A stretch of DNA of 64,000 bases, taken from Owenia fusiformis. Taxonomy: Eukaryota. The translations under genes and the position numbers were made by a program. This document shows positions 10,901 through 59,900 of the stretch, in pieces. The notes beneath the pieces were generated by a model that was given only the letters and a program-made list of their open reading frames with translations, was not told where the DNA came from and ran no database searches. The stretch spans positions 23,994,001-24,058,000 of the forward strand of contig CAIIXF020000001.1 in the NCBI GenBank assembly GCA_903813345.2. The letters are read 5' to 3'. Each line of letters opens with the position of its first letter. The first letter of the stretch is position 1.

Positions 10901-13900
10901 ATTGGTGTTATAATGAGTCTTGACTTTATTTCAGCTTCTAGATGATCCTATATTCATCCCCATACAACAGTTAGAGCAAGACAAGAAAGGTAGTCCACCA
11001 GAATTCTCCACAGTGTTAAGAGAAATGAAAGCTGGAAAAACTGGGTCACTTCGCATAGAGAAAGCCAGGAGAGGCACTCCAAAGGTGTATATTTGAATTT
11101 TACATGTGACTTTTGGAAATTAAAGTTATCTGTGCTACATGTACTTGGTAAAAACATGTTATTATCCCATCAAATAAAGTTTGGAGATAATTTGAGATGT
11201 ATCCATTCATCAACCCATCCATCCATCCATCCATCCATCCATCCATCCATCCATCTGTTGTTACATCTGTCTGTCCTAATCCATTTGTTTATTGTATTCA
11301 GCTTTCCTTACATCTGTCTGTCCAAAGTATTTGTATCAATTTTGTATGATGTTCTGTATATTCCAGGGAGATGCTAGGGCTGGGATTAAGTATGATATAA
11401 TGCCAGGAACATACTACTATGCTGCTATGAATGACTCTGAGTATGCATTTGCTTTCAACCTGGCTGACACTGATAAGGTACATCTACTTTGTTCACCTCC
11501 CCTCAAAGTGAAGCTTCACTGTTGATTTGTATGTCTTAGTGCAGAAGATTAAAGAGTAATACTTAATAGGGGAAGAAGATGATATAGTGGGCTGTATAGC
11601 AAGGTTGGTCGGGGTCGGGAGCTGGGGATAATTTTATTGCTTAAATATAACCATGTCATCATCCTACATTAGAATCCACTCAGTCTAACATCAATTTCTG
11701 GTGCGAAAGTTGTCATTTTTGAGTTTTACCCCCCTTGAAGACAAATTCTTGGGGGTACTATGACAAATGCTTATAACTAAAGAAGTATTTATGTGATCAT
11801 CTTCATTTTTGGCATGGGTAATTAACAGGTATGTAAAAGTAAAATTTGAAAAATTCGTACAAATTGGGTTATTAATCCATCCTAAAGATAATAATTCAGG
11901 TATTTTCAAGGGTCAATTTCAACATTTTCTGAATGTCGACATGAACTAAAAATAACAATTTGACCCAAATGACATATTTATTGAATGTTTTTAGGCTTTA
12001 GAAAATAATTTGACTATATAAGCTAAAATAATAACATAAGAATTGTACCATATTGATAATTCTTCATCGCCGTCCAGGCACAAATAAACCCCACCCCTCC
12101 CCATTTTCGATTATAAAGGTCTATACATGAAACTTCCTTAAATAGCTATATTTCAGAAACTATTACAGCCTACATTGCAAAATTATTTCTCATGGTGATT
12201 ATTCACATCATACTCTGCATAATAGACATATAATTGAGATTTATCCATTCTATAGCTAATAATTAAGGTATTTTCAAGGTTCAATTTCATCATTTTCGGA
12301 ATGTCGCCATGAAGTAAAAATTACATGACCTAATGACATTTATTAAATCTTTTTAGGCTTTAGAAAATAATTTGACTTTATAAGCTAAGATAATAACATA
12401 AGAATTGTACGATATTGATAATTCTTCATCGCCATCCAGGGATAAATAATTTGCGAAAATAAAGGTTTTTACCTGAAACTTATTCAAATAGCTATACTTC
12501 AGAAACTATGACAGCCTCCATTCCAAAATTTCTCTTGTTGATTATACACATCATACTCTGCAAATTATGCATATAATTGAAGTCTTAACACTTTTTGAGG
12601 GTGTAGCTAATAATAATACTATATTTATTAGACATCTTAGAAATCAAAATATATGTTTTAGAAGGTTGTCACAACACTACAAGAGAGATATTTTGGAGAT
12701 AAATTGGCGTGTTCAGAATTTAAGAGAAGGCGTAGAGGTAAAATGCAGCCACTGCTAGTGAATGGTCCCAAAACTATAGTCCCAAAAAATTGGAAGGACT
12801 TCCTTTCAAATAGCAAAAGCAAAATTCAGCTTGTCCAACTTATCCTCGCAGAATGGAAAAAGGACAAATATGAAAAAAATTCAGAACACGCCAATTTACT
12901 TTGTCTGTCAGGAGAAGTGCATCTTACTCAGAAGTGATGGGTCACATGTTGTTAGTGAGGAAGTCCTAGACCTAAGGTGTAACCATGATGAACCTGACAC
13001 AAAATCATTCTCCATGCTTTATATGCATCAATAAAGGTGGGGGCTGAGGCCCAGACCATACTTGTCAGATCTCCAGACACAGATGTTCTCATACTCCTGC
13101 TTATTTACAGCAAACACCTACTTCTCAAAGTACTGTTTGACACTGGAGTTTCAAACAAGAGGCGCCTCATTGATGTGAAGACAGTTGCAGCAGGTTTGGG
13201 TGATCCAATCACAGCCACCCTGATCAGTATCCACTGTTTTACAGGGTGTGATACCACCAGTGCCTTCATGAGAAAGGGAGAAATAGACCCTCTGAAACAG
13301 CTGATCAAGAGGGAGGACATGCATGCAATCTTTCAAGAACTTGGAAAATCTATAGTTCTTGACCAAAGGCATCTTCAAAAACTTGAAAGATTTGTGTGCA
13401 TCATGTATGGGGAAAAGAAAAAAACAGACATCAATCATGTACGATACATAAATTTTGCCAACAGATTTCAACCTCAAGCCTCTATCAACAACTATGATGG
13501 GATAGACATCAGTCTCCTTCCTCCATGCAGGTCAACCCTTGTTCAATATTGTAAAATATGCAACTACCAAGGGTACATATGAAAGCAGTCTCACAAAGCT
13601 CAAATGGATATACACTCTCCAGCAGATGGATCCTAGAAGATGGCGAACTTGATATACAATGAGCTGAAAATCCAAATGCCATTCTTCTACAAGAGTTGGT
13701 AGACATTTATAACGAAGAATCAGATGACGAAATTGATGATGATATGACAGATAATGAAGTCAACAATTTCATAGATGAAATCTTTTCAGGTGATGTTGAT
13801 AACTAACAATGTTCAACTGCTTGAAGCAAATGTTGAAGTGAATACTCAATCAAATTGTATTGGTGAAGTTATTCAAAAACATATTGGTGGAACATATTAA

Positions 13901-32900: not shown

Positions 32901-35900
32901 ATGGTATTTAATTGGAAGGAAACATGTGGCCTTTACACACTATGTGTTTACGATTTTTGCTGTAACTTGAAAAGGAGTGGGGTTATTTTTTCATTTTTGA
33001 TATAGGAATACTATATAATGGCACAATGTCTAATGACACACTTTATTTTTTGATTTGATTTGATTTGAAAACTATATTTATTCTGGGTAGCCCTATCAAC
33101 ACAAAACTGGTCTTCCTAGAGGCCCAGTTATAATTTACAATTATTTACAATATGTACAATAAATGTAGAAACATACAAATAGATACATAGGACATATAGA
33201 ACAATTTGATATATATGCATCTTCAAAGTATGCATTAACATATATGTTTCATTATACCAAAGAAAATTACTCACTCCATGCAATAGATACATCATTTGTG
33301 GGTTACTCCCACTTCTGTTTGAAGTTCAATAACGCTGGGAGCAAAAGCAATTGAAAATGGTGCAGGAGTATCATCTTTCAAAATGTACCATTTCTTGTTT
33401 AATTTTCTTATGGCACGATATTGTGACACAATAATATTTTCACATGGTTTAAGCATAATTATGAAGGTATAAATTAGATGTTGATGTATTTGGTCTTCTT
33501 AATTCTTTTATAAAGAATAATATGTTTTTTTGTTCCCTGTGACGGAGCAGTTGCAGATGTGAACTGTGAAAATGCTCTGCCACAGTGGACAAAAAATGTT
33601 TATATTATTTTTTATAAAAAAATTAAAAAGACCCAATGCATTAATGTCTCATTACTACATTCAGAGTTATGCTGAAAATGTATGTTAATATTATCATGTC
33701 ACTATATCATACACTTAAAAAGTAATAAAAGAAATGGTAGATTTTAAAGTTTGATACTCTGGTGCTGTTTTCAATAACTTTTACTCCTAGCATTATTGGA
33801 CTTCAAACAGAAGTAATGGTTACTCGCAAATGATATATCCATTGCATGGAGTAAGTAAACTTCTTTGATAAACAGAAACATATGAGTTAAGAAAAATAGC
33901 ATGCTCCGTCACAGCGGACAAATCTTTCGATACCAGCCTGTGATAATACTTAAGGAAAATATTTGTATTGCCTTGACATGGGGATGTGCTTCATTGACTT
34001 CAAGTGGTACTCAAACCATTTAAACAGGCAATGCGCCTATTTTTGAAGGAAAAAGGACAAAATATGAGTGTCACTCACACAGTCAATCAAATATGATAAA
34101 AACTTTAATTTGGGTCAATACTGAAGTGAAAAAAATTACTCGTATAGAAAACAGGATTTGAAGTTCAGAGATCAAAAGAAGTGAATTACCACTTTTCACA
34201 AAGTGTATGTGTTTAAATAACTCCTGGATTAAAAGATGGCACATGGTTAAAAATCCTATCAAAAATGAATGGATAATTAATGCAAACAACAATGTCATCT
34301 TTCTATGGCATTGCTAAAACTTGACATATATAAATTGATAGATCAAAAATATTTTTTCATGATCTAGTGTCAACTCTGATGTGGTCTGTTTGAGCTGTTT
34401 TTGGTGTCAAATGAAAGATCAGGTACTTATTAATCTATTGGAAATACTATGAAGATCAAAAGTGAGACTTCGTTTACGCACTTTGTCCCTTTAACTAGAT
34501 TTAGATATATTCATGCTATCTTACCATATGAAGGCAACACTTTACGATGGTGAACCATCAACAATTCTAGAAGTTCATTTAATCATGATATCCGGGATAT
34601 AAAGTCAGCACGTGGCTATTTTCACAGCAAAACTGATTTCATTTTCAGAGCAAAGATTTTACGTCATGTGACATGACGTGTGTGGTTGAAACAATTTGCC
34701 GCGTAATACAATTCTGTAGATAAAAATGAAACCCTGGCTCACAAAACCTGTTTATCACTCTTATGTTGAGCCAATTATTGCATAATTGAGGCTATTTTCA
34801 TAAATTTTTCAAAGGGTATCATATCACTTGCAATTGAGTGCAGAATAAATTGAGCTGAGACGCTATTGAAAACATGTAAGTTATATAACAGCAAATATCC
34901 ACAGTGACATCTATATGAAAACCTAGTGTAATCAGTATTTAGTAATTTTTGAACACGGGGGACATACTCCAGGCAGCATGATGAGATATTTTTATTTGAG
35001 GGCAAGACTGTCCTCCATGCTTTTGGGAATGGCTTTTGGGGAGCCATAGCTTTAGGTGCACCACCTACACTTAAGGTGTGTGGAGAGAGATACGCCTTGG
35101 GGGCGATTTGGCTTTTGGGAAGCCATAATAGGTGCATAAGGGCACCACCCACACTTTGGGAGTGTAGAGAGAGATACGCCTTGGGGGCGATTTTGCTTTT
35201 GGGAAGCCATAATAGGTGCATAAGGGCACCACCCACACTTAAGGTGTGTGGAGAGAGATACGCCTTGGGGGCGATTTGGCTTTTGGGAAGTCATAATAGG
35301 TGCATAAGGGCACCACCCACACTTTGGGAGTGTGGAGAGAGATACGCCTTGGGGGCGATTTGGCTTTTGGGAAGCCATGAAAGGTGCATACTGTAAGGGC
35401 ACCATCTACACTTAGGGAGTGTGAAGATACACCTTGGATATGTGTGAAGAAATTTCAATGTCATTCGAGGGTGGGTGATCATTCCTTGTGATTCAGGTTC
35501 GTTTAGAAGAGGATGTATACCTCAGCGGTACTAAATTCCCTCTTGATTTAGTTGATGAAGAAATACATTCGAATATACTCATCTTTCGAGTGATGATGAT
35601 GTTTCTGCATGCATTGTTCGCGGGCAATTTACTGTACCTTCAGCAGAATATGTAATAAATGGAAATAGTAAGTTGCCTATTTGGGATAGTGCATATTCTG
35701 TGGCATGGTTTATTGGATTGGACTAGTTTGTATCTTAAAACAAGTGTATTTACCACTGTGTTCAATTTTGATTTCGCATTGGATAGGTTATATAAATGTG
35801 AGCAAGTAGGTTTATTTTTATCTAAGGATTAGGAGGAGAGTTTTTTTTTGTTTTTTTTTCATATATTTCAAATTCTTTTTTACAATGAATGTTCAAAGAA

Positions 35901-38900
35901 TTAACAATTAATAAAATAAGACCCCAGAGGATTGAAATTAGCTACACATGTCTTCTCCCATAAACACAGTAAATCTCACTCCAGGAATTCCTGAAAAGTG
36001 CTTATTAAGTGTTTATACACAGAAGAAATATGTCAATCATATTTCACCCAGTAAAGATCCTATTTTGAAAGAGATGGAGTATACACAATAAGTCCAAATT
36101 TAGTCTGTTCCAAAGTTAGATAATCTTATTTATGTGTCTTGTGGATTCTGGTCAACAGCCTGGGGTAGGGAAAGAACTTTGTCTGGGCCATCTTTAATGA
36201 ACTCAAAGATATGATCATGTATCCATTTAAGTCCTTTCTGTTCACTGACACAGATGCTGTTAAGAAGTATTTCATGGGCAATGTCAATCCATTTTGCCTC
36301 AGGGTCTTTAAGTAATGTCCCTTGTATCTCAGATTCTTTCATGTCATGGGATATAATCACAAAAAATCATCAAGATTAGCAATATATACATCTATGTTCT
36401 CATCTCCACGTTGTTGATGAGCTAGAAAGGTATCATGTATGACAGTGTTACGCTTATTGTCTTCTAAACGTGACTTTAGATCATCGCTGTTAAACTGTTC
36501 CTTACTAAGCTTGCTCTCAACAACTGTTGCTTTTATTAAGGTTCCATCTGTGTTTGTAGCAATATTCTGTGTGTGTATCCTTGCACTTACTGCTTTACTT
36601 TCAGTTTGAGTAATATCAGTATGTTTATCTGTATTCGTAGAAATATTCCGTTTTCGTATCCTAGGGCTTACTGCTTTACTTTCAGTTTGAGTAATGTTTG
36701 TTTGACTACAGGAATCATTTGACAAAATACTGTCTGTGTTGCTTGATCTATTCACTGTCTGACTTTTGTATCGAGAATTATTCCTTTTGGTTGATGGACA
36801 CTGTAGTTTAAGTTTTGGTTCAGTTTGTTTTTCGTCCAAACATTTCATTACATTATTGGTGGTCTGTGTGTTTAAATCCTCTCCAGATGTCTGTTTATCA
36901 TTTTGAATTGATGCAGGTTCCATACATATTATGTGTACTCCAACATTTTCATGTGTGTTTTGATATGGTCCCTCACTGGTTACACTAACTTGTTTTGGTA
37001 TGAATGGCTTTGCTTCAGACCAGTCAGCTTCACTCAGAGGTGTTGAGGTATGAGTGCCTGCTAATTTCCTATTGTTCTCCGTTTCATTATAAAACATGGT
37101 ATTGTATTGCGAATCATTATCACAGCTGGATTGTTTTAAGTGAGAGTTGTTGAACTGGGTCATTCTAACTTGGTCTCTGTGTACTTGTTTTGTATTTTGC
37201 CTGACCTCTTGTCCAGTATATTCACCTGTTGTAAATCTCAAACTTATACAGGGTGGGCCAAAAAAACGCCACTTTTTTTTCAAAATGCTATAACTTTTTT
37301 AATTTTTGATACAAAATCATAATTCACATACCAAATGAAACTTGAGGTTGTTATCTAGCCATTGATCATGAATTATACACTTTTACTTAAATAAAATATG
37401 TCACCAGCGTCTCACTTAAACATGTGGTGTGCCATGAGAAATAAGCATAATTTGGATAATGTTCCTAAACTGATACGCCCTGATGACCGCCAGCTAATAG
37501 CCTTTATTCAAACCCAAGTGAGTATAGGGCATGGGGAGGTCTCCAGGAGATGGTACGAAGGCACCAGATCTAAAAAATTGCTTAACTAAAGCTGGCAATT
37601 AAGACACATTGAAAAAATATAGCTAACATTTCATTGATACTGCTATATCAGCAAGGTGACTAAAACTAAAATCTATCATCAAATGGGGTGGCGGACCAAT
37701 TGAACTCCTCTTTTTAGATCAAATAAAATCCCAGTTGAAGGACTCGTTACATTATATTATTACTAAGAACCCTTGGCACTATATAACTGCAAAATTTGGG
37801 GTATTTAGGTTGGAAAATAAAAAAGTTATAGTGTCTTGAAAAAAAAGTGGCGTTTTTTTTGGCCCACCCTGTAGTTGTATACAATCCATTGCCTTGCATT
37901 TTATAGTTGTAAAACATCTGTCCTTGCAATTTTAGTAATTCCAATAAGTTCTCCACCACTTTAGGTAACATATCCATTATATTTTGAGAAATTATATCGT
38001 AGAATAAGTCACTTTTATGCTAAAAACTGACCAAATTTAGGAGCTCTAAAAATTGCCAACCTGTCCAGTAAGGGACCAACTCAACTCAATTAGGAGGAGA
38101 GTGGTCAGGCTGTTTTAGTAGGGTGCAGGGGATATGGAATGTATACAGATATGTAACTGACATTTTGCCCCAAACCTTAACGTGAAGTACTGGTTGAAGT
38201 ATATATGTCACTGTGCGTAGGGTACTATCAACAGTTACATCTATATGAAAACCGAGAGCAATCAGTATTTAGTAACTTTTGAAATCGTGGAAGTGGCTTT
38301 ATACTTCTTGGTGTTGGGAGAGTTTCTATAGCCTATGGTAATTAACTTAATAGTTATTGAAAAAACTTCCCACCACTCCCGCCCATGTTTCGGTATATAT
38401 TAGAATTTTAACGGATAACCATGCAAGTTGGATTAACCTCCTGTAGAGATCAACATGTGATGCTGCCACTAATTAATTTGATAATTAGCAAATAAGGATT
38501 TCATAAGATTATCATTCATCAAATTGGATTAACCTCCTGTAGATATAGACATGTGATGCTACCACTAATTAATACCCCTTGCTGTTTGTTTCAAACTTGA
38601 TAAGTAAGATTAAGAATGTCAGTTAAAAAACAAATGAATTATTAGCAGTAGGAAACGAGTCTTCAAACATTTGTCAAATCTACGTGCCTGAGACTGGCAA
38701 AATGAGGAGGATTAAGAATGTCAGAAAACATTTCTGGCAGAATGAGGAGGATTAAGAATGTCAGAAAACATTTTTGGCAGAATGTCAGACACCTTTTTGA
38801 GTAAAACAAATGGACAATTTCAGATGACTTATTCATATGAATTAATTTTTTTCTCATAGGGAGGCATTTAATTGAATATGTTTTGTTATCATTGTTGGGT

Positions 38901-41900
38901 CTATCAAGAGGCATAAAGGCTTTCAAAATAATGAGAAAAAATAGAGATTATCTTATATGAGGTTCATGATATTGGGATTATCCCGAGGCCAATATAATAT
39001 ATCTGCCTGAGGGCCGTAGGTCCTGAGGGAAGACATCTTATATTGGCCAAGGGAGTAATTAAAGTGATTATGCGAACATTACAAAAATGAATCAATATGC
39101 TCTATTGACTTCTTTTTCCTTATTGACAAATTCCTGTGGTTCGGAGAGGGACGTAAAGCTATATCTGCCAGCTGATGAAAATATAAGTTTTTACAAGCCT
39201 GCTTTATGTACCTGTAACACATCCAAGTATGGGATAAAGAACATGTATGAACAATTTGTGACTTAATATTCACAATTTCAATTGTAGATGCCTACTACAT
39301 TGGTTGTGTTGAAGGAATGCTGTCAAGTGGGTTTGGTCTTCCAATAGATGGTGCTTCTGAATGTCGTTCTGAATGTCCCTTTATTGGTCAAATAGCTTCA
39401 ATTTATTCAACATCGTAAGTATTGTAAATTTTGTATCTTGCGCAAACAATGATATGTTAACTTTAAGCTCAGCTTGTTTGATAATATGAGCACTCCATTT
39501 ATCCATTATAGTCTGCCAAAATGGCAGGCTAAATTAACCTGTTTCAAAACCATACTTTACCCTGGGATTGGAATGTCTCATACCACCACAAGTGGTGACA
39601 TATTGTTATAGTTTCATACTTTTTTGTGGACAGTGGTCAGTTGTTGGTGTTTAGTGGTTACCAGTATCTGTAACAAATAGCAAGTGGTGACATTTTGCAT
39701 GTTGCAATTTACCACAAATTGAAAGCTCCTTAATCTCAGACAAAATTAACCACCCCTATAAAATCATTCTTCTGCAGGATTTTTGTTGGGAGCCACTCTG
39801 AAACATTGTTTTCTATTATAATAACCTATTATTGAACACATTTACGCAAACACTTTTGTTTTAAATAAAATGTACAGTCTGTCCATGTTTTGATTAGGTC
39901 CTCGTCACATCTTAGAATTCACAATGATTTCCAATTTATCTATTGTTGCATGCATATTGAGCTTCCAAATTGTCATTGTTACTTTATAGAACCCCTACGA
40001 TGACTTGTAGTTGTATATCTACAGACACAATTTTGGAGACTGATTCGATGAATTTACTGCAACCCATTGAGACATGTTATAATCAATGCAGTGTAAACGG
40101 AACAATTGCTTCAATGACCTGTGGAAATGTCAATGCCACACCAGTAGCAAGTAGCATTTATTCATCAGGTTTCACTAGGTATAATGGGGTTTTCCTTGAG
40201 CTAAATGGTGACATGGGTACCTCATTTGTCTTGATGAGTCCAACAGTAGAGTCTCCACATATAGCTATAATCGGAGATCAGTGGTCTATTAAAGATGATT
40301 CACATTCTGGTTTGATGTATGGCATGTATAGTCTCATTAAATGGGGTCCATCTTTTGAGTTCAGAGCAGATCAGATTTCTAAGTATGAACCATGGAACTA
40401 TAACTATAGCTTGAGTGATATTGGTGATCTTGAAATAATGATAAGCATCAGAAATATGCTGTTTGAATTTGTTGATGTCATACCCATCTCAGTGGTGATT
40501 GGTGCAGCTGATGTACAGATAACTCCACCTGGAGAATTGATAACTCCTGGAGAACAGATTTACAAATTGTCAATGTCTCGTGGTCTAAATCTGACATGTA
40601 GCATAGCATGGGATGATAACGTCGAGACATTTACAAATATGAATAGTGATTCTTCAAGTGACATGAGTATTACCATCAGTTCAGATGAGACTAAGTGGAT
40701 TGAAGTGATCATAGACTGTTATGATCCATATCAGCCCAGACTGATAGAAGGGAAAATATTTGATCATTTTATTGTTGCTGAGGCCTCTCTTGAAATTAGT
40801 TCAAGTTCTATCATGGTTCACTCTTTTCATAAGTATTTTACCATTCCAACATATTTTGTGATAGATACTCCCATCGTATACATAGATGGCATTCTTTTAC
40901 CCAACGTGACACTTGACAGCAACAACATGCTCCTATCACCAGATATGAGTGAATATGCTGTTGGTCTACACATTCTACATATTATTGTATTCAATCCTCT
41001 TGGCGTCCAAATAAAATCTGCCAATCTGATTATTATGCCTGCTCCCACATATGGAATGGAATCATTGTCACTGCCAACCATTACTGGCACTACAGCTGGA
41101 ACAGGATCATTTTCAGTGATGTATAATACTAGTGAAACAATAATCATGCTAGCTCTAGTTGATGGTTATGCTGATTTTGTAGCTGCATTTAATCCAGACC
41201 CAAGTGATAAAACTGAAATTGGCATGGCCATAGACACACCTGGTATATATTCTGCTCATATTGTAGATGGAGTACATTATTATCAACCAACGCAAGTGTA
41301 CATTGTTCTTCCAATTGGAAGTGTTAACCTGAATGCAACTGACGCATATTACATTGAGGAGCCAACGACGCAATTCTTTGTCTCAGTGGAAAGTGAAACA
41401 CCAAATATGACAATCACTATTGACCTACAGGATGGCATTTTTATTGAGGACCATGTCACACTTGCTGCAGGGGCTCCAATGGAATTTGAACATGAATTTC
41501 AAACAGATATAGCTCCAATATCTATTCCCATTGTTGGATTAGCAGTATCTTTGGCAGAGGAATTGGTCTTCAAAACCGTAGCCAACATCTTATTATACAA
41601 TGAACTGGACTTGAATGTAGACAAATTGATTGTCAACACTTCAGAAAGTTTTACAATAATGTACACCAATGTAACTGGGTTTAACATTTTGTTTACAACC
41701 CCAGAAGCAGATATTGAATTCCCAGCAGTGAATGTGTTCAACAGATCTACTCAATCATCAGTTTCCACTTTCTTACCAAATGAGGGAATATATTTCTTGC
41801 CTTCTTTTGTGGACAACAATGACACAAGAAGCTCTGCCTCTTTAATCAAACCAATTGTTGTCCAGAATCCACTGATTGATATATCTATAAATGAAAGCAT

Positions 41901-44900
41901 TGATGGAGTCTTGATATCACAAGAACAGAGTGTTGTTTTAACCTTGACCCATAACAATGAAGTGAATCTACCCACAAATGTTTCATGTGTTCTAGATACA
42001 GGAGCAGGAATCCAGGATGAAACATCAGTTTTCTCACTGGAACCATTCCATGTTTTGATTATAGATTATGAGGAAACTGGCTCATATATGCTTAATGTTA
42101 ACTGTAGTAATCTTGTAAGTTCTGCATTGGTAGATATAGAAATTGTAATCGAAGATCTAACAATAGAATCATTTAATGTAACCATGATGACACCAGATGA
42201 TGTAACATTTCATGTTGAAGATCAAAAGACTCTTGTAGAATTCCAATTGATGATAGATGGTGTAGAATGTCTAATGGTGCCCCCAGAGGCAGAGTATTTT
42301 TGGACCTATGGTGATGAAACTGCAACTGATACCAACATGACTGAATGCAAACATGTCCATAAGTATGACAAGAAAGGTACTTATACTGCAGAACTCACTA
42401 TCAAATTAGATGGACAACTGAGGGTATTTTCATTTGACATAAAGGTAGGGATCCTAAACATTTCCACTGATGTAGCTGAAGGTGTAATGGGGGTGGATGA
42501 CCTTACCCTTAAAGTCATAGGATTCGAAGGAGATCTGAGTATAACTATTGAAGCCATGAATGTCAATGACCCCACAGTAACAAGTAAAGATGAACTATCT
42601 GCAATTGCAGTTGATCAGACAGCTGTGCTATTGTACATATTCTCAATACCAGGAGAGTTGTCTGTCAACTTCACAGTTGCAAATGATACACACATTGAAT
42701 CAACACAGTTGTTATCAACCATTATGATGTATGCTCCATGTCCTGATTATGAAATCAACTATTTAGGCCCCGAATTAACTATCACACCGGCAACTGTTGA
42801 AGTTGAAGTCTCACGTATTCATCCTTATCATCCTGATGATGCCTTGTTCTTCATGGATTATGGAGATGGTAATCCAAGTATGCCAGTAACTATAGAAACT
42901 TTTGAATCCACCTTACTCTCACATGATTTTGTATTTGATGGAACTGCAAATTTACAATTGAGATGTACAAGTCCACATGGTAACACTGAGTCATATCTTA
43001 ATATTGATTTCATCGAGGATATGACAGAGCTCACAATGATACCTCTTGGTGAAACGGTTCCTACAGTTGTTATACTTGGATCCAATGTAGAATACATATG
43101 CTCTGTTGCCTCAGGTAGGGGTGTCACGTTTTCGTTGAGTATCGGATCACATGAAGTAAAACATCTCCCAGGGAATCCAAGACAAGCTTTATTTAACCAC
43201 ACTTTTGTGACCGTAGGACTGAGTACAGTAATATGTAATGCAACTGACTTTTATGGCAAAACATTGTCATACACACAGCAAGTTCAGGTAATGAAAAACC
43301 TCATTCTTGATGTTGAAATGTTCCACATTGATGGCCCTGAAACAGTCACCTTTGATTATGTAATGAGAGAAGCATCGGCTGAATTTGTTATTTCTATTGA
43401 TGGTTTTGGATCAGTCATCCCTGAAGGTGTTCTTGTTGCCTGGGAATTTGGGGATGACTCTATTGGAGTACCAATGAATAATCTTACATCATACTCAGAA
43501 ATGCATTCATTTTTTGATGCTGGTACTTTCATTGTCACTGCACTGATCCATTTGCCTTTGGGTGAAAGTTTTACACTGTCACATACAATAACAGTGGTAA
43601 AGCCATGTTTGTGTCCAATCATATCTTTTGATGAAAGTGTGATTCAAAGAGATTCCCCTCTTACAGTGATCAAATCACGCTCAGCAGGCATCACACTTGG
43701 TGTTACGCAGAGATGTGATGGACAAGCATTCAAACCTAAATACAGCTGGCATTTATCACAACTTGAACTAGGAGTATATGAATCGAGTCCAATAGTATCA
43801 TCTCTTTTTACAATCCCCAAAAAGACTCTAAATGATGGTTTGTTCATTGTGACAACTTCAGTGGAACTAACTGGAAACTTGTCATGTAACTTAAGTGCTT
43901 ACATGCATCTTAAAGTTGTGAAGACCCCATTGGATTGCAAAATCTTTGGTGGTGAAACTGTTGCTGTAGGTGTAAGTAACAATCTGATATTGCGAAGTGA
44001 AACTATTGATCCTGACTTACCCATTTCAACTGACTATAGTGGAATGACCTATAGCTGGACCTGCACGAAGATTCCAGTTGACCCTGATAACATTGAAGAA
44101 ATCCCTGTTGAACAGGATGGTGATGAGTGCTTTCCAGATTCCCCTAATCCAACTGATAGAGAGGTCATACATACCGAAGCAAAAACAGCTGGCTTTTGGT
44201 ATATAAACAATTTAAAAGTACAGAAAGATGAACGGTCATGCAGTGCAGTCCAATCTGTTAGAGTTGATGATGGAAATACACCACAATCTGTAATAAGGCA
44301 AGTCCTTTTAATTTTGTGCTGTGGATATTTTGTATATCTATGCTGCTCTTTGTTTTTTCTTATTGAAATAATAACAGAGACTTTGTTTCAAATATTCATC
44401 TCCCCTGTTATATTCTTGCTTTTTAATATCCTATAATGATATTGTATAATTTTGTGTTTAGATGTCGGGCTAACTGTCTAAAAAAGGTCAATCCTGCTGT
44501 TGCCTTAGTGATTGAAGCAATGTGCACTAACTGTGTGTCTGAAGAGGGTGTGCTTTACAACTGGAAGTTGTATAAGGAGAAACTGGGGGGCACATTTGAG
44601 GAAGTAACAGATGTGTTGGGAAACGGTAATTAATATCTGTTAATATCTGTTCCATTGGAGTGAACTAATCTTTAGATGTCTTTAATTCCAAACATTTTCA
44701 TTGTTTTCCTAAACAACCTTTCTTAGCGTGACCATTAAGTTGCATTTCTATGTCTATTTAAACGCTGCCATTTAAACCACACAAGGAAAAAAAATTAAAG
44801 AAAATATTGATAGAATTGAATGCATCATTAGCTTGATTCATTAGTTGGCTAAAAGCTTGTGTCTAAATCCCAAAGATATTGATATTTTCTAGATTCTTCT

Positions 44901-50900: not shown

Positions 50901-53900
50901 TATAAAATTGTTATGAAATCTATATAAAAATGTTAATTAATGAATGTGATGAAAAAAATGATAAAAACTAGGTCAATGTGAATGAAATAAATATGTCATC
51001 TCAATTCTTCATTATGTCACCACCACAAGTGGCGACATTGTTATGGTCTCCAAATTTTTGTGGATTGTGTTTTGCATTCGACAGTTGGTTGTTGGAGGTT
51101 GATGATTGGTATTTGGTGTCAATAACAAATGGCAGGTGGTTGCATTTGCGTGTTAATGCCTTGTTAATACATATGTTCTAGCTTACCAACACAAAGGGCA
51201 ACATAGCAGCATTTGCTGAAGGGGCTGATAGTGTTACATCAGGGATCAATACTCTAAGCCTATTCAATGAAGAAGGTGCTGTCAAACCAGATGGAGTCGT
51301 AATACAACAGAGCTTCAATGTAGCTGACTTTGTGAAAAGGCCAGGCCAGAAAATTAAAGGAAGAAGAGGGAAAATGGCATATATCAAGTAACTATAGCAA
51401 CAAATGTTTTAATAAAACATAAACATACAACAACAATTATTTCACATTTTGCAGATTTTGATTCTAAAAATATAATTTTTTTCTTATTGTATTCAATCAG
51501 TGCAGAATTATTCAAATAAATAATGTTTGTCATGTTTGTTATTATTTGTTTAACGTCATAATTATCATTATTTAGGACAGAAACTTGTGAAAAGCAAGAT
51601 ATGCAGATATCAATGTCAGATGGCAAAGATAACCAGGTCTTCAAAATAGCAATTAAGTGTGGTGAATATCCCAAAAATCCAAAAGATAGCAATTGTGATG
51701 TCATAACATTCAAGCCTGCAGAAAGTGATGTCATAATTGTTCCATATGAGTGTGTGGCAGACTGTGTCTGTGATGGGGATATCACTATTGGAGCACTGAT
51801 ACGTACCAAGAAAGGAGGTAAGTCAACTATTTGTATTGTTAGTACCTCAGTGTAAATTCTCGCATCTGATTGGTCAATTAGCGGTCAACCTTTTTGCCTG
51901 TACCCCACCTGTGCATCATGGGATATAATATTATTGACCGCGTATGTTACTGTACTGTGCTTGTGAATTATGGGGAATATGATGTCATAATGTTTACAGA
52001 AAAAAACATGGTAGATGAGTGGCGTGGTTCGGAGAGAAGATTGTGAAATGAAGCTATGATTGATGATTGTCATCTATATGTGTATTATTAGTTTCTTTTG
52101 AGTAACAAAACAATTGTATACCTCAACTGTAAACTTTGAAACTACTGTACTGTTGACCTCGATGTTCGGTCTCTGTCAACAGTAGTTTCTTGGTTTACAG
52201 TCTCAGTATACAATTTTATCGGTCGACCTCTGGAGTGGTCAACAATTGTATATTACCAGAAGTCAAAGCTGTACCATGACCAATGTGTAAGTTTGCTACA
52301 CATACACTATAAATATGATTGGAAGAGATGTAATTGAGATAGCTTGAAATGGAAGAATATGCGTAGGTATATGTTTCTCTTCTGCCCTATTTCACTTGTG
52401 TCAATATTGTTAACTTATAGACACCAATTGTCTCCCTCTTATTCGTAAAATTGATTCAGGAAGAGGTAAAAGACAAGCAGACAATAGCAACACAACAGTT
52501 GAAGATGATGACTACTCTGATTACATTGACTGGAACACTATTAGTGAGGCTGAACTGGAGGATATGGGAATAGACCCTGATGATGCAGGAGACATGCCTG
52601 ATACAGATGTAGCTAGTGTTGGCTGTAAGGTCTTCAATGGAACTGATTGGGTATCAGATGGATGCAGGGTAAATGTTGCATATTCCACGTTGTGTCTACA
52701 ATATGTAAAGGTTATGTACTACTAGGTTTTTCATGTTGGGTTCATCCTAAGAGAATTTTTTTTTTCAAGAACCATCTTCCAAAGGTGTGAATTCAGACAT
52801 CATTTTAGTTTAGTTTAGTTAGTTACTTACTTTTATTCTCAAACTATTATACATTCATTTTACATCAACATACATTTGTGAGACTTTTTCAAGTGGATCC
52901 ACTCTTGCTAAAAATATTTTTATGTCTGAGAAAAATCTTCTTTCCAAAAACAGTGGACATATAGATAAAAGCTGATTCTGATAAAAGTTTATAACTTTTT
53001 TAAACAAATAAATTTAAAAGAAAAACATGTATATTTGCCTTTCAGATCTCCCCATTGTCCACAGCAAACAATACAAAGTGTGATTGTGATTTGGCAGAGA
53101 CACCTGCTTTCACATTTGCCACATCATTCATGGTCATGCCCAACACCATCGACTTCAATGCTGTCTTTGCTAACTATGACTTTGGGCGTAACGCTGCAGT
53201 ATTTGCCACGCTGTTAGCATTACTTGCAATATATATTCCCATAGTGATCTGGGCTCGCAGAAATGATAACAAGGACATTCTAAGAGTAAGTATATGGAAC
53301 ACAATTTGTATGGACTAAACTCATGACTTAATAGAAATTTATCAATATGATTATATCGGCACCATTATATCATATCCATGAAGATAACTCTTGAGAACCC
53401 AACATGACAAGAACGCTTGTGTTACTGAAACCATTAGTAATGTTAATTGTGGGGAAAACTGGGATAGACTACATTATGAAATAGCGAACTGCAGAAAAAC
53501 AAGCGACCATAAAACAGATGTATATTTTTAGTTCAAATAGGTAAACTTAAAATAGACAGGATCTCACGTCATAAACTCTACATTGTATGTAGACTTCTAG
53601 CTGTGCTCAATATATGCAGTATCCTCAGTAAATCATTTCTTAATTTCCAGTGGGGTGTGACCCTGTTGAAAGATAACGACCCTGATGAGCACTACTTTTA
53701 CATCATCAATGTATATACTGGGATGAGACGTGGTGCTGGGACAAAGTCTAAGATCAGCTTCATACTTGCTGGTCAGGATGAGGACACTGGAGTTAGACAA
53801 TTAGACGATGGCCTACGAACCGTAAGTGATTCAGGGGGTATTGATAAAAAATTCTAATACAGTATTACATTGAAAAAATATCATATGTATCAAATGGTGA

Positions 53901-56900
53901 AGTTATTTGAAGAGACAGCTAGGAATCACAACTTTGTAATATTTTTAGTTTACAAAAATTATTGTATCTTCATTAGAACTTGCTGAATTTTGGCATTTCT
54001 GCGTCTCAAACCTTTCTACCATCATGTATGCTAAAACATCTCTAATTCAGGGAAAAATGTCATTCATTGACTAGTTTTCTTGTTTAAAAGAGTTCACATG
54101 AATTGATTTAGAGAAAGCATATCAACAAGGAATAACATATTCGTTCAATGACTATTGTATTACTGTGTAGTACATGTTCTAACTGAATTTCTGCATATCT
54201 CTTATTTCTATGTCATGTTTGTAGGAGTTTGGCAGGGGCACTGTGCTAAGGTTCTTATGTAGTACCCCCGAATCTCTGGGGCAGTTGAAGTACATACGTA
54301 TGTGGCATGATAACTCAGGTGGGGGAGAGAATTCATCTTGGTATCTGGCTAGAGTTCTGGTCCAGGACATTCAGACTGATGATACGTAAGTTGCATGAGA
54401 ACTTTGAACTCACACAACAGATTCAGAGGAAAATCGTAATTTTAGGCCTATCTTTCAATTCATACATTCATAATTCATTATTTGAAATATGAAATGAATA
54501 GATTTAGACTTGTACAAGTAAGCTAAAAACTAACTTTTGCAGATTTGTGTTTGTCTGTGGTAAATGGCTTGGTGTAGAGATGGGTGATGGTGAGATAGAA
54601 CGTTTGATTCCCGCAGCAGAGTCTGACACTTTACGTACATTCAATCATCTATTTGACGACAATGCAAGGAAGCGAGTCACTGAAGACCATCTTTGGTTCT
54701 CTATTCTGATGCGTCCTCAAAGGAGTAACTTCACCAGAGTCCAGAGAGTCTCATGTTGTCTCTCACTCTTGTTTCTCACTATGATTGCTAACTGTATGTT
54801 CTTTGGCCAAGAGAATGCTGTTGATAACCCTATGGTGATCTCTGTTGGTCCATTGAGCTTTGGCATACACACTATTTGGATATCATTTATTAGTATCCTA
54901 GTAGTGATGCCTGTCAGTCTAGTGTGTGTTGAGCTGTTTAAAAGAGCAAGACCTAGGAAAACTCAGATAGGCACAGGTGTTAACCCAACAGATTCGGGCG
55001 ATGAGAAACCAATCGGTTGCTGCAATAAACTTCTTCATAATGTCCCAATAAGAGGCCGTGTGTACATGCCTATTGACCAAGAGGAAAAAACGTTGCCTTA
55101 CTGGGTTGCCTATATAGGATGGACATTGGTAGTTCTGTCTGTTGTTGCATCAGGTTTCTTCATTCTGCTCTATACGCAGCAATGGGGGGAGGAAAAGTCA
55201 AGTCAGTGGCTGAGCACCTTCATGCTCTCATTTTTCCAGTCCCTCCTCGTCATGGACCCTGTCAAGGTATGTTACAGTCATTTGAAATTTGAATTGTTTT
55301 ATTACAGCTAAGCACATATATTTTGTAAAGAATGATGAAGATTATGAAAGAAACCCTTATGATGACAGTATAATGTTACCAAATTGGATAGTTGCTCACA
55401 GTTTTAATAAGCTCTGAATTTTTGAGTGCCTTATCTCATATTGAAAAACATGTCCAGGCATGAACGAATGATATTATTATTATGTCACCACCAAAAGTGG
55501 TGGTGACATATTGTTATGGTCTCCGTTTTTTTATGTCACCACCAAAAGTGGTGGTGACATATTGTTATGGTCTCCGTTTTTTTGCGACGGCGGTTGGCGT
55601 CCGGCGGTTGGAGGTTGGCGTCCGGCGGTTGGCGTCCGGCGTCTGTAACAATTTCTTACAACTTCCTATAACTTAACAAATACTGTTTAGACTGACTTCA
55701 ATTTTTTTCTAAATCATCTACATGTTCTCAGAAGTTCAAATCTGACTTTAGATTTGACATTTGACCTTCAATGACCTTCTCAAGGTCAAAAAGGTCTTTT
55801 TTCAACTTGCTTCACATTGACTAAATTTTTTTTCAAAATCATCTACATGTTCTCAGAAATTCAAATCTGACTTTAGATTTGTCTCTAGATTTGACATTTG
55901 ACCTTCAAACCTGACTTTAGATTTGACATTTGACCTTCAATGACCTTCTCAAGGTCAAAAAAGGTCAAAAAGGTCTGTTTTCAACTTGCTTCAAATTGAC
56001 TAAATTTTTTTTTCAAAATCATCTACATGTTCTCAGAAATTCAAATCTGACTTAAGATTTGACTTAAGATTTGACATTTGACCTTCAATGACCTTCTCAA
56101 GGTCAAAAAGGTCTGTTTTCAACTTGCTTCAAATTGACTAAAAAATTTTTTCAAAATCATCTACGTGTTCTCAGGAATTCAAATCTGACTTTAGATTTGA
56201 CTTAAGATTTGACATTTGACCTTCAATGACCTTCTCAAAGTCAAAAAAGGTCAAAAAGGTCTTTTTTCAACTTGCTTCAAATTGACTAAATTTTTTTTTC
56301 AAAATCATCTACATGTTCTCAGAAATTCAAATCTGACTTTAGATTTGACATTTGACCTTCAATGACCTTCTCAATGTCAAAAAAGGTCAAAAAGGTATTA
56401 TTTCATCTTGCTTCAAATTGACTAAATTTTTTTTTCAAAATCATCTACATGTTTTCAGAAATTCAAATATGACTTTAGATTTGACATTTGACCTTCAATG
56501 ACCTTCTCAAGGTCAAAAAAGGTCAAAAAGGTCTTTTTTCAACTTGCTTCAAATTGACTAATTTTTTTTTCAAAATCATCTACATGTTCTCAGAAATTCA
56601 AATCTGACTTTAGATTTGACTTTTGACCTTTAATGACCTTCTCAAGGTCATAAAAGATCTGTTTTTAACTTGCTTCAAATTGACCAATTTTTTTTTTCAA
56701 AATCATCTACATCTTTTCAGAAGTTCAAATTTGACTTTACAAGTTCTCAGAAGTTCAAATCTGACTTTAGATTTGACCTTTGACCTTCAATGACCTTCTC
56801 AAGGTCAAAAAGGTCTTTTTTCAACTTGCTTCAAATTGACTAATTTTTTGTCAATGACCTTTTCAAGGTCAAAAATGTCTTTTTTCAACTTGCTTCAAAT

Positions 56901-59900
56901 TTACTTAATTTTTTTTCAAAATCATCTACATGTTCTCAGAAGTTCAAATCTGACTTTACATTTGACCTTCAATGACCTTCTCAATGTCAAAAAAAGTCAA
57001 AGAGGTATTTTTTCAACTTGCTTCAAATTGACGAATTTTTTTTTCAAAATCATCTACATGTTCTAAGAAGTTCAAATCAAACCTTCTTAAGGTCAAAAGG
57101 TATTTTCCAACTTGCTTTAAATTGACCAAATTGTTTTAGGTGGTGACATTTTGTCATGTTAATGCCTTGTTAATAGTTTGCTGTGTGTAAAATTCACCAA
57201 TTGGACAATCCATTCATAAATTCCGAAATGTAGCACTTGTTTTCTCACATTATAGGTGGCAGTTATAGCAGCTGCCCTGTCAATCATATTCCGTAAGCCA
57301 CGCCTTATTGGAGACACAATTGAGATGAACACCCTGAAGGAAGATGAAGAATACATACAGCAAAACACATCAGAGAGGAATGCTGGTCCGTATTCATAAA
57401 TGCCACCTATAGAGTACATGTATACCAAACCTGACAACTAATTCAAATCTTATTATTGGGATAACCTCTGGTGAATTGGTGGTAAAGAATGCAGATACTG
57501 GAAACTATGACTCTTACGGCTTACATTGACCTTGAGAAATACATAATGTAGGCTAAGGTCGATAGAACTAATTTCTAAATATAGTACATACAAGGCAAAT
57601 CATCACCAACCTTTGTATGAGTGTAAATGTAATATGTTGTAATGAGCAAAGTATGAGTTCAAATTACTTTTTATTTTCAGCTACAAGAGCCAAATACTAT
57701 AAGCCAATGAGCAAAAGAAAAATCAGAGAATTTCGAAAGGAGCGTCACAGGGAGATAGCTCTTCAAGGGCTCACCAGGGAGATTGTGCTCTACGTTATCT
57801 TTATGTGGATAATATACAGCATCAGTCAGAGTAACCGAGATGACATGAGTTACCGTATCACTGAGGTCCTCAGTAAATCCATACTGGATGATCTCACCAC
57901 TTCAATGAAACCAGAGGGATTTTATGAGGTAGTCTATAGAACACTTATAAAAGTTGATTCTTTTATTTTGTTTTATGTTTGTGTGGGTATGTTATACTTA
58001 GAGAATGTTTTTTTATGATTTTCAAATACTTCTTCTCAAAGTGTATGCTTTTGCTATATTCAAATGAAACATACATGTATTTGATACATTTTTCATCCTA
58101 AAGAGTAGAATTCTTCGATAATGCACTTTGAATAAAATGAATTCAATATGGCTGCCCAAATATAAGAAACTTTCACTTTTCAGACATCAAGCTGTTACTG
58201 ATTTGCTAAGTTCATTTTCAAATACACGAATTCATAGAAATTTCTTCCACCTTGAAGACATATTACTCCCACCTCCGTTCACTCCCCCCTCCGTTCAATT
58301 TCAATTATTTTTGATTATTTTTTATGTATCGTTTGGAAGATTATTTTAAAAAACCAGCAATGACAATAATTTTGTGATAAAAACATAGCTGATATATATT
58401 TATTACACGTCATGCAGACAATTGTTGCTTGATTTATAGCAAAAACATTGACATTTGCACGTTGTTGATTCTGCGCCTTTTTTAATAGATCTGGTATCTT
58501 AGAAGTCCATCACTTCAAAAAAATCCTAGAAGACCTAACACATTTCCCCGTGTACTGCGCCTATTCATTTAGCAATTCAATTGTAAGCTTTCTCTTGAAA
58601 AAATAAATCTTGGAGATTTGTTGAATTTTCTAGTGAAAATCAGTGGCCCGGTCGTGATTATAAATATTATGTTCATAATATCAGCAATTATGAGTCATAG
58701 TAACATATTTGAAAACACAGCGCAGACTGAACAGCATCATAACCTTGAATAGACAGTTCACAGGATGGAAAGTCCAAAATGGCCACCATATCCTTTACCC
58801 AGAATGCCCAAAAGCTTATAAGTTATAGAGTTTATTCCAAGAAACATCCCAACATTTCAGATGAATACATGAAATGATTTGGTTGCAAAGGGTGCGATAA
58901 TAATACTTGGGGAACTTGGCTTACTTGTTGTAGCTCGAAAAGTGAATTATCTATTTTTGAAAATTGGCAAGCTTTTGAACCAGTCATAGTTTACTTCCTG
59001 CGAAAGCTATTTGGATTTTGATATAATAGCTTTCCCACGGCGCATTTGAACAGCTGAATGATAGTGACCTTTGAAATCGAATTAAGTCGATCAGCGGCTT
59101 ACTTTTGGTCTCTAACTGTGTCTTACATCAGTATCATCGAATCCGTGTAAGTATTAGAGCACTGAAATACTTCTTTTTCGATCAAGACTTGTAAATTGTT
59201 CATCGAGTGAATGTTTTTTAGACCTATTTCCAATATGGCGGTTTGCTAGGAGCGAGATACGCAACGAACGAAATGAATTTTGAGAATTAGTTAGGTTCGG
59301 ACAACCTCTGGAGATTTACGAAAATGTCCGAGCAGAAAATGCCATATTGGAATTTGGCAGTAAAAACATTCACTCGACAAACAATTACAAGTCTTGATCG
59401 AAAAGGAAGTACTTCAGCGCTCCAATACTTGCACAGAAGGATGATAATGATGTATAACATAGTTAGAGAACAAAAGTAGGCCGCTGATCGACTTAATTCG
59501 ACTTCAAAGGTCACTATTAATCAGCTGTCCACTTCCCCGTTTGAGAGCCATAAGTTTCAAAATCTCACATGGCTCTCGAAGTGAGTAAGTCATAGTCTCT
59601 TTTGATGAATGAATAATGACAGACAGACCAACAGATAAGTTAGTGATTGTAATAACTCACCATGTGAGCTAATAACCACATCAAGGTGATCTAAAGTAAA
59701 AAGTAAGGGGTCAATGTCATCTTGGCCTAGTTTTTTAAGAATGTTTATCTAATGTTGTTATTGTGATAAACCTATTTGGCCATAGTTACGGAGGAATTCA
59801 GTATTACCATACTGTAAATCTTCGACATTGACTTGAACATTGGCAGGTAGTGTCTCATATGTATCTTCATTTGTTGTTTCATTTGCTGTACTTGTGTCAT

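Follow-up and report, generated by a model that had tools for sequence, protein, structure and literature searches.

Retrocopies and retroCNVs are known from mammals, Drosophila, mosquito, zebrafish, chicken and plants, and a target-site duplication (TSD) and a poly(A) remnant are the accepted hallmarks of those made by LINE machinery (PMC5470649). HAL1 ('half-L1') elements are non-autonomous L1 derivatives encoding only ORF1p (PMC5753468). A minus-strand insert in the 64-kb stretch of Owenia fusiformis DNA analysed here (the window) resembles LINE-mediated retrocopies in being a full-length mRNA-like unit with a poly(A) remnant and a TSD of LINE-typical length, in having both filled and empty alleles and transcribed source copies elsewhere, and in the decay of the new copy through a nested transposon and a frameshift. 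It differs from them in that its source is seemingly a several-copy gene without database relatives, in a target that is not T-rich, in a poorly sampled host judged to be lophotrochozoan-type from its polycystin relatives at 39-46% identity, and in having no recognised parent, so that its status as a retrocopy is reached without the intron-loss criterion. With HAL1 the insert shares a single ORF, the absence of an RT, an A-tail, a duplication and, presumably, mobilisation in trans. The HAL1 ORF is L1 ORF1 and its ends are L1-derived, whereas for the insert neither an ORF1-family match nor a LINE partner was found; unlike the low-copy insert, HAL1 is also a multi-copy interspersed repeat. The insert is probably a young retrocopy (retroCNV), now a pseudogene, of an expressed, lineage-restricted, low-copy orphan gene.

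The insert spans 2,247 bp (35842-38088) between two exact copies of a 14-bp direct repeat, the left at 35828..35841, on the 3′ side of the minus-strand unit, and the right at 38089..38102, on its 5′ side. This 14-mer, ATTAGGAGGAGAGT, occurs exactly twice in the 64 kb, at 35828 and 38089, and none of 100 shuffled sequences contained it twice, even with one mismatch permitted. On the plus strand, T8GT9 lies just inside the left copy (35842-35859), corresponding on the minus strand to an 18-nt poly(A) tail remnant, A9CA8, that directly adjoins the duplication. Both the flanking TSD and the abutting 3′ poly(A) remnant of a retrocopy are therefore present, and the repeat and A-tract reported in a preliminary description of this DNA were both recovered. 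On the sense strand the nick site reads ...GACC/ACTC..., and the target site is not T-rich; the L1 nick-site consensus is T-rich.

Four public sequencing runs were searched for alleles of the insertion (X1, X3, X7 and X21; the kinds of the first three, DNA or RNA, were guessed by the tool). In two of the four, X1 and X3, a contig joined 35827 directly to 38089, skipping exactly 2,261 bp with 14 letters that fit both sides, and the empty allele retains a single copy of the 14-mer. Each of these runs gave one such contig, at a depth of 41.7 in X1, where 293/293 letters were accounted for, and of 6.74 in X3. The filled junction was also recovered from X1 (record 2, 35642-35882) with 0 differences from the window at a depth of 36.3, as was the right flank (record 7) at a depth of 40.1; with filled and empty versions at similar depth, X1 looks like a heterozygote for the insertion. 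Relative to the window flanks, the empty-allele contig has differences at 11/186 places (with 8 gaps) and at 9/103, and it could still conceivably come from a diverged paralogous site rather than an allele, though its depth fits an allele. Since an empty-site allele with one 14-mer accompanies a filled contig, the insertion is real, was made by target-primed reverse transcription (TPRT) and is not fixed; its boundaries and polymorphism were observed directly. The TPRT origin claimed in the preliminary description is thereby supported, and the empty-site allele for which it had proposed a search was found in both X1 and X3.

It is highly improbable that no retroposition took place and that the locus is a DNA-level indel polymorphism (a hemizygous segment) with a 14-bp microhomology repeat and a chance T-run. 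Among molluscs, widespread hemizygous segments have been reported (10.1101/2020.09.15.298695; PMC7653742), and deletion between short direct repeats likewise leaves exactly one copy. However, the limits of the insert are those of a complete transcription unit with an 18-nt A-tail exactly at the repeat, RNA contigs cover this same unit and not the left flank (X7 covers the insert and has a depth of 0 in the left-flank bins 35400-35711), near-identical copies are present elsewhere, and a chance-repeat deletion is not expected to remove exactly one mRNA together with its tail.

Once a nested MITE is subtracted, the insert consists of a 111-nt leader, an ORF of ~407 codons interrupted by one frameshift, and 270 nt of 3′ UTR, all on the minus strand, where the joined frame is arithmetic on ORF coordinates rather than the product of an assembled MITE-free sequence. 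These values agree with the ORF of ~400 aa, the single frameshift and the leader of ~110 nt given earlier; the 3′ UTR, previously put at ~290 nt, measures 270 nt, followed by the 18-nt tail. An X7 contig extends through the leader (37978..38088) to 38070, 18 nt short of the 5′ end of the insert. ORF codons 1-35 (37874..37977, with the ATG at 37977-37975) are separated from the remainder by the MITE, and removal of the MITE with one TA brings the frame 38019..37875 into phase with the frame 37247..36360. The main ORF segment of 296 codons (36360..37248) holds the end of the N-terminal block, a low-complexity middle rich in T, S, N, Q and K, and the start of the C-terminal region; a 313-codon open frame, the third longest in the window, has a chance of ~1e-9 at the window's stop frequency. 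The duplicated peptide unit noticed earlier corresponds to an 81-bp tandem duplication (36546..36695; a 27-aa unit in 1.9 copies at 85% identity), present in different numbers of units among copies, as a joint from 36585 to 36667 in X3 skips 81 bp. At the frameshift site (36357..36366) a six-base homopolymer is followed by a premature stop (36359-36357, in or beside the homopolymer), and the next frame is then open for 78 codons. In the window copy these C-terminal 78 codons and their stop (36130..36366, stop at 36132-36130) do not share the frame of the main ORF. Both X7 contigs (kind guessed as RNA) and stranded raw reads of X21 RNA cover the 3′ UTR (35860..36129). This UTR lacks the canonical signals AATAAA and ATTAAA; an AATATA stops 2 nt short of the tail, which is also preceded, ~15-25 nt upstream, by an A-rich stretch.

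The element that splits the ORF is 623 bp long (37249..37871) and is flanked by TA at 37247-37248 and 37872-37873, with terminal inverted repeats whose arms measure 34 nt and 51 nt. A precise MITE-free joint from 37246 to 37872, which skips 625 with two letters that fit both sides, was present in X1, X3 and X7 as well as in three RNA reads of X21, and the depth of the element in X1 was ~10^5 compared to ~40 per haplotype, corresponding to a very high copy number. Terminal inverted repeats, a TA duplication, a high copy number, a precise empty site in the other copies, and neither a transposase nor a long ORF are the features of a TA-targeting MITE and are shared with Tc1/mariner-type (Stowaway-like) MITEs. 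The 623-bp MITE of the preliminary description was re-found, and the other copies of the unit proved to be MITE-free.

These other copies, which are ~1.5% different from the window copy, were found in both DNA-type and RNA-type runs. Differences from the window number 15/1,002 aligned places, plus one gap, in X1 records 3-6 and 15/993 places, plus one gap, in X7 records 16-18. Their depth in X1 is ~270-290 compared to ~36-42 per flank haplotype (~7 haplotype equivalents), and in X3 ~72 compared to ~11, where contig depths are sums and not a copy number. Depth in X1 reaches 584-743 over the 5′ third of the insert compared to ~280 over the middle and 3′ part, and over 36045-36612 and 36667-37041 the contigs of high depth run collinearly with the insert. 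Self-BLAST of the 64-kb window gave no second copy. At the frameshift site the other copies have one base more and two substitutions relative to the window; the extra base accounts for 288.7/288.7 of the depth in X1, 31.1/31.1 in X7 and 40.9/130.2 in X3, and for 0/4 raw RNA reads of X21. Intact-frame, MITE-free copies exist elsewhere, and frameshifted versions may exist elsewhere too, judging from the X21 and X3 values. All raw RNA reads of X21 carried the non-window letter at 36457 (5/5), 36544 (10/10), 36621 (6/6) and 36784 (3/3); the non-window copies are transcribed, the RNA reads at informative sites come from them, and a retrocopy's transcribed source copy elsewhere is accordingly present. 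One further contig of single-copy depth (X3 record 9; 1,124 nt, depth 16), possibly from the source locus, matches only 35859-36059; past the polyadenylation point it continues for ~937 nt with no alignment to the T-run. Among the 13 ORF differences listed, eight are non-synonymous and five synonymous, with no clear sign of purifying selection, and since 163 further differences lie in the stretch beyond these, the 13 are too few and too selected for a dN/dS test.

The encoded protein was compared with known families and protein collections. No Pfam match was obtained for the two long ORF pieces, and a 48-aa piece gave only a sub-threshold DUF5445 (E 0.7); Pfam families for RT, endonuclease, transposase and known ORF1 proteins were all without a match in the ORF, in agreement with the lack of RT, endonuclease and transposase motifs noted at the outset. 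A word-indexed search of 5.8 billion proteins identified no relatives of the 296-aa piece and, among the longer proteins of that collection, none of the 78-aa piece; PDB sequences gave 0 hits. Exhaustive phmmer searching of 1.84 billion representatives returned two hits (E 4.8e-4 and 8.7e-4), which were dismissed as chance matches of internally repeated proteins to the low-complexity part only, at 24-29% identity. The best ESM Atlas scores, 0.76-0.78 and including a 'Retrotrans_gag' cluster, were likewise set aside as lying below the level of a third of shuffled proteins. Pattern matches for related loci numbered 73 in metagenome contigs and two in viral contigs, with 0 confirmed in either. 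The protein collection includes a gene model of this chromosome (P0006, 100% identity) and no protein like the ORF; since the chromosome is represented there but the ORF protein is absent, the supposed source gene is unannotated. Single-sequence AF2 gave the 296-aa piece a mean pLDDT of 34.3 and the 78-aa piece one of 48.7, the latter as two helices at low confidence; both models were too poor for a fold search, with the C-terminal region split by the frameshift. The low-complexity stretch of the architecture first proposed is present, and the protein did not fold with confidence. From composition alone, our guess would be a mostly disordered protein with small folded ends; on the retrocopy reading it plays no part in mobilisation.

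These comparisons bear on the suggestion that the insert is an internally deleted LINE, a 'half-LINE' of a resident autonomous element that kept ORF1 and the 3′ UTR and lost ORF2, which is very unlikely. A single ORF with a leader, 3′ UTR, A-tail and duplication would suit such an element, and the ORF1 proteins of many LINE clades evolve fast and can escape Pfam, but no ORF1-type domain was found with Pfam, HMMER over 1.84 billion representatives matched 0 LINE proteins, and no RT remnant lies downstream of the ORF. Homology to the ORF1 of an autonomous LINE, which marks HAL1-type elements and which the preliminary description had named as fatal to its proposal, was found neither in Pfam nor in the 5.8-billion and 1.84-billion protein collections. 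The insert is on the strand opposite to a polycystin-1-like gene, ~1.9 kb upstream of one large exon that encodes REJ/PKD; the polycystin relatives show 39-46% identity. None of the 51 window ORFs of at least 85 aa that were scanned in Pfam matched RT or endonuclease families, and the window holds no partner LINE, nor an RT or endonuclease ORF for a comparison of LINE tails. The region 35000-39000 has no Rfam match at E ≤ 0.1 and no tRNA; a SINE was ruled out, as the insert carries a 407-codon ORF and neither a tRNA nor an Rfam small-RNA match.

A different source for the insert, which we regard as unlikely, would be a young family of few non-autonomous retroposons that carry an ORF but no RT, HAL1-like and mobilised in trans by a LINE ORF2-type enzyme, the other copies then being sister insertions and not a host gene. 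Several ~98.5%-identical, intronless-looking copies at several-fold flank depth, an intact and transcribed ORF in those copies, a gene that is unannotated though the chromosome has gene models in the collection, and X3 record 9, which at single-copy depth shows at least one copy to have a different 3′ flank, are all consistent with such a family; since the insertion is recent and unfixed, its source would also be currently active. Set against these, copies number in the units and not in the hundreds, depth is greater over the 5′ third whereas retroposon families are 3′-biased, the sole foreign 3′ flank seen has no A-run, the ORF is unlike known ORF1 or gag (the 'Retrotrans_gag' rows at 0.76-0.78 being often reached by shuffled proteins), and neither a partner LINE nor a second copy is present in the 64-kb window. 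As to the dispersed copies typical of HAL1, depth suggests several only, with one foreign 3′ flank (X3 record 9) and no other in the window. That a living, low-copy, protein-coding non-autonomous retroposon exists, its orphan ORF carried by a LINE enzyme and its intact masters yielding segregating insertions, appears distinctly unlikely.

Of the alternatives in the preliminary description, a processed copy of an orphan gene or a mobile family, the retroposition common to both stands and the first fits better, because copy number is low, because the 5′ third is deeper than the 3′ part, the opposite of 5′-truncating retroposition, because one contig of single-copy depth passes the polyadenylation point without an A-run, and because the ORF falls into none of the known LINE ORF1 families; the second is neither established nor dismissed. 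What supports the word 'processed' is the tail together with the duplication rather than intron loss, and with no intron-containing parent found it is unproven in the strict sense. Several observations count against a retrocopy: the several-fold depth implies several intronless-looking copies, which a small mobile family would also give; the nick site is not T-rich, AATAAA is absent and the source gene is unannotated; and the ORF differences are without clear purifying selection, with the extra base in 0/4 RNA reads.

If the insert is a retrocopy, its template would have been the polyadenylated mRNA of an expressed, lineage-restricted, low-copy orphan gene with a largely low-complexity product of ~407 aa. 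A LINE-type endonuclease/reverse transcriptase acting in trans would have pasted a full-length intronless copy by TPRT, producing the A-tail and the 14-bp target-site duplication, and the insertion would be young and segregating, with filled and empty alleles coexisting. A TA-targeting MITE would afterwards have entered codon 35, and this together with a one-base loss in the homopolymer of the window copy would have left a dead copy, or retropseudogene. Three points are inferences: the LINE origin of the enzymes, a host gene and not a mobile family as the source, and the order in which this copy was disabled.

The locus is a clear but ordinary case of gene retroposition in an invertebrate genome. 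It provides a clean, dated example of recent mRNA retroposition, complete with TSD, tail, empty allele and nested MITE, in a lineage of invertebrates where the evidence for retrocopy formation comes mostly from gene families without introns and not from insertion hallmarks. It suggests that some resident LINE machinery copies polyadenylated mRNAs in trans, now or very recently, and points to an orphan gene that is expressed, present in several copies and unannotated. Should the other copies instead be dispersed insertions with their own duplications, the unit would be an unusual ORF-carrying non-autonomous retroposon.

The 14-bp direct repeat noted from the sequence alone was found exactly twice in the window (35828 and 38089), which is eukaryotic DNA of ~35% G+C, and it was the sole long exact non-tandem direct repeat within 35500-38500. 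Two matches to it, with one mismatch permitted, appeared in 0 of 100 dinucleotide-preserving shuffles. Directly inside the left copy the plus strand reads T8 G T9 (35842-35859), corresponding on the minus strand to a tail of A9CA8 that terminates at the repeat. The minus-strand insert (35842-38088) spans exactly one leader-ORF-UTR-tail unit, accompanied by the 14-bp duplication. Together, a tail and a target-site duplication are the recognised signature of target-primed reverse transcription by LINE machinery (PMC5470649).

Four public sequencing runs from the same organism were aligned to 35400-38500 at 90% likeness. Three supplied contigs, guessed to be DNA (X1) and RNA (X3 and X7, either of which may be DNA), and the fourth, X21, is recorded as raw RNA reads that look stranded, of which about 6% were read. 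A joint from 35827 to 38089, which skips 2,261 bases and has 14 letters assignable to both sides, was present in one 293-nt contig of X1 (depth 41.7, all letters placed, shorter side 103) and in one contig of X3 (depth 6.74). This joint is the empty site, keeping a single copy of the 14-mer, which the preliminary description had named as a check on its reading. Since X1 also contained the filled left junction (a contig covering 35642-35882 at depth 36.3, with 0 differences from the window) and the right flank (depth 40.1), it looks heterozygous for the insertion. X1 possibly represents the individual behind the window assembly and hence is not independent of it; X3 comes from a different study and is. 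Against the window flanks, the empty contig shows differences at 11 of 186 places (with 8 gaps) and 9 of 103, far above the divergence of the insert from its relatives, which fits a young insertion amid old, diverged haplotypes; there is a small chance that it is a paralogous site instead of an allele.

The minus-strand ORF opens with an ATG at 37977 and runs for 35 codons up to a nested MITE of 623 bp (37249-37871), whose earlier designation agrees with its inverted arms of 34 and 51 nt and the TA flanking each side. The frame resuming at 37247 is in phase with the first 35 codons once the MITE and a single TA are left out, as calculated by coordinate arithmetic and not read from joined sequence. 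It continues for 296 codons to a premature stop adjoining a six-base homopolymer, past which the next frame adds a further 78 codons. The resulting layout, a 111-nt leader, a once-frameshifted ORF of ~407 codons and a 270-nt 3′ UTR followed by an 18-nt tail, bears out the initial estimates of a ~110-nt leader, an intronless ~400-aa ORF with one frameshift and a ~290-nt 3′ UTR, and the duplicated peptide unit corresponds to an 81-bp tandem repeat at the DNA level. Since a 313-codon open frame has a chance probability of ~1e-9 at the window's stop frequency, the frame is, or until very recently was, real coding sequence.

No significant Pfam family was found for pieces of the ORF, consistent with the reported absence of reverse transcriptase, endonuclease or transposase motifs; the sole listed match, DUF5445, was sub-threshold (E 0.7) over a 48-aa piece. 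The protein, rich in T, S, N, K, Q and D, had no relatives in two large protein collections or in PDB, and there was no sign of it participating in its own mobilisation. Matches in the ESM Atlas were rejected with scores at noise level, and single-sequence AlphaFold2 models (pLDDT 34 and 49) were unreliable.

Copies of the unit without the MITE exist, as a joint from 37246 to 37872 (625 bases skipped, two letters fitting both sides) was present in X1 (depth 658), X3 (two contigs), X7 (one contig) and X21 (three raw RNA reads). Compared with the window, high-depth contigs had 15 differences over 1,002 aligned places in X1 (records 3-6) and 15 over 993 in X7 (records 16-18), with one gap in each case. 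The depth of other copies was ~270-290 in X1, against 36-42 per flank haplotype, and ~65-72 in X3, against ~11 for the flank; such contig depths are sums and not copy numbers, and they indicate several copies, neither one nor hundreds. The MITE itself reached a depth of ~2-3 x 10^5 in the runs, compared with several-fold flank depth for the insert copies. Its family is transcribed from both strands in the RNA run, includes many internally deleted variants with joints within 37264-37856, and shows fixed differences from the window copy, e.g. at 37389, 37455 and 37726.

At the frameshift site, other copies carry one extra base and two substitutions, and by our reading of the site the extra base would join the main frame to the 78-codon frame. 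It was present in all of the depth in X1 (288.7/288.7) and X7 (31.1/31.1), in 40.9 of 130.2 in X3, and in none of four raw RNA reads from X21. Because most X3 depth is without it, window-like frameshifted versions may exist elsewhere. X3 also contained a variant in the number of 81-bp units. Relative to other copies, 13 differences were listed, 8 non-synonymous and 5 synonymous, too small and selected a sample to interpret. Raw reads from X21 reached depths of up to 9 across the ORF and 3′ UTR, and since they carry non-window letters at 36457 (5/5), 36544 (10/10), 36621 (6/6) and 36784 (3/3), the RNA comes from other copies and not demonstrably from the window copy. X7 depth was 31-290 across the insert, with coverage to 38070, 18 nt short of the insert's 5′ end, and zero in three left-flank bins (35400-35711).

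The insert was more deeply covered in its 5′ third (36960-37250 and 37874-38000), at 584-743 in X1 versus ~280 elsewhere (about twice) and at 5-8 times the rest in X7. In X7, a contig with 91.5% identity and stronger coverage that spans 36952-37128 (record 19) suggests paralogs with a common N-terminal part. Stranded X21 reads over this third, including the three that skip the MITE, ran in the direction opposite to those over the 3′ two-thirds. These anomalies could reflect such a paralog family or antisense transcription.

The preliminary description had left two alternatives, a processed copy of an orphan gene and an undescribed retroposon family, and low copy number, 5′ depth, one X3 contig and the lack of ORF1 or gag likeness in the ORF favour the former. 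The insertion itself is real, well supported and segregating, and it is probably a young retrocopy of an orphan gene that is expressed: mRNA of the host gene would have been inserted by LINE-mediated target-primed reverse transcription, and the copy later broken by the MITE and the frameshift. A mobile family, half-LINE included, would account for several near-identical collinear copies, an ORF that stays intact and transcribed, and current activity. It would also fit a protein collection that holds a gene model from the same chromosome (P0006) yet nothing like the insert ORF. We nevertheless consider a mobile family less likely, given the low copy number and a depth bias toward the 5′ third, the reverse of the 3′ bias from 5′-truncating retroposition. 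The X3 contig (record 9; 1,124 nt, depth 16) aligns to 35859-36059 and extends from there ~937 nt past the cleavage site with the T-run unaligned, as would genomic sequence on the 3′ side of a source locus. In outline the unit is similar to HAL1, which is defined as derived from L1 and coding for ORF1p alone (PMC5753468), but its ORF has no likeness to any ORF1 or gag family.

No RT-bearing element was found within the 64-kb window. Read in the sense direction, the duplication begins with A and then CTC after G/C-rich bases, so the nick site is not T-rich, in contrast to the T-rich nick consensus of mammalian L1. Neither AATAAA nor ATTAAA occurs in the 3′ UTR of the insert; AATATA, among the variants that can serve as polyadenylation signals, ends 2 nt upstream of the tail, which is also preceded at 15-25 nt by an A-rich stretch.

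The retrocopy landed in repeat-rich DNA, as the right flank holds two further repeats (38104-38207 and 38416-38500). By run depth, one of these is moderate (X1 2,270) and one very high (X1 about 49,000). An 84-bp tandem repeat at 35058-35427 (4.3 copies, 90% matches), which lies ~400 bp away from where the insert landed, has open frames on each strand. The insert lies ~1.9 kb upstream of, and on the opposite strand to, an open exon of 1,491 codons (39961-44436) that carries PKD and REJ domains and is assigned to a plus-strand polycystin-1-like gene with polycystin domains in its downstream exons. P0006 (1,304 aa, 100% identity) maps to the downstream part only, 51562-63998, and the REJ exon may be a part of the same gene absent from that model. 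The closest named relatives of the gene are from molluscs and rotifers (39-46% identity), which would make the host probably a lophotrochozoan-type animal from a sparsely sampled lineage. Within its span, a 723-codon minus-strand frame (59758-61929) contains a long Ser/Thr/Pro-rich tandem repeat, its only Pfam match being sub-threshold and repeat-driven; judged from sequence, the product looks mucin-like and likely has a membrane anchor. A 194-codon plus-strand frame (12998-13582), with no Pfam match, may be an exon or what is left of a further mobile element.

The growth of gene families by retroposition has been proposed in lophotrochozoans and in oysters (PMC6896357, PMC8917759), and widespread hemizygosity has been reported in molluscs (PMC7653742, 10.1101/2020.09.15.298695).
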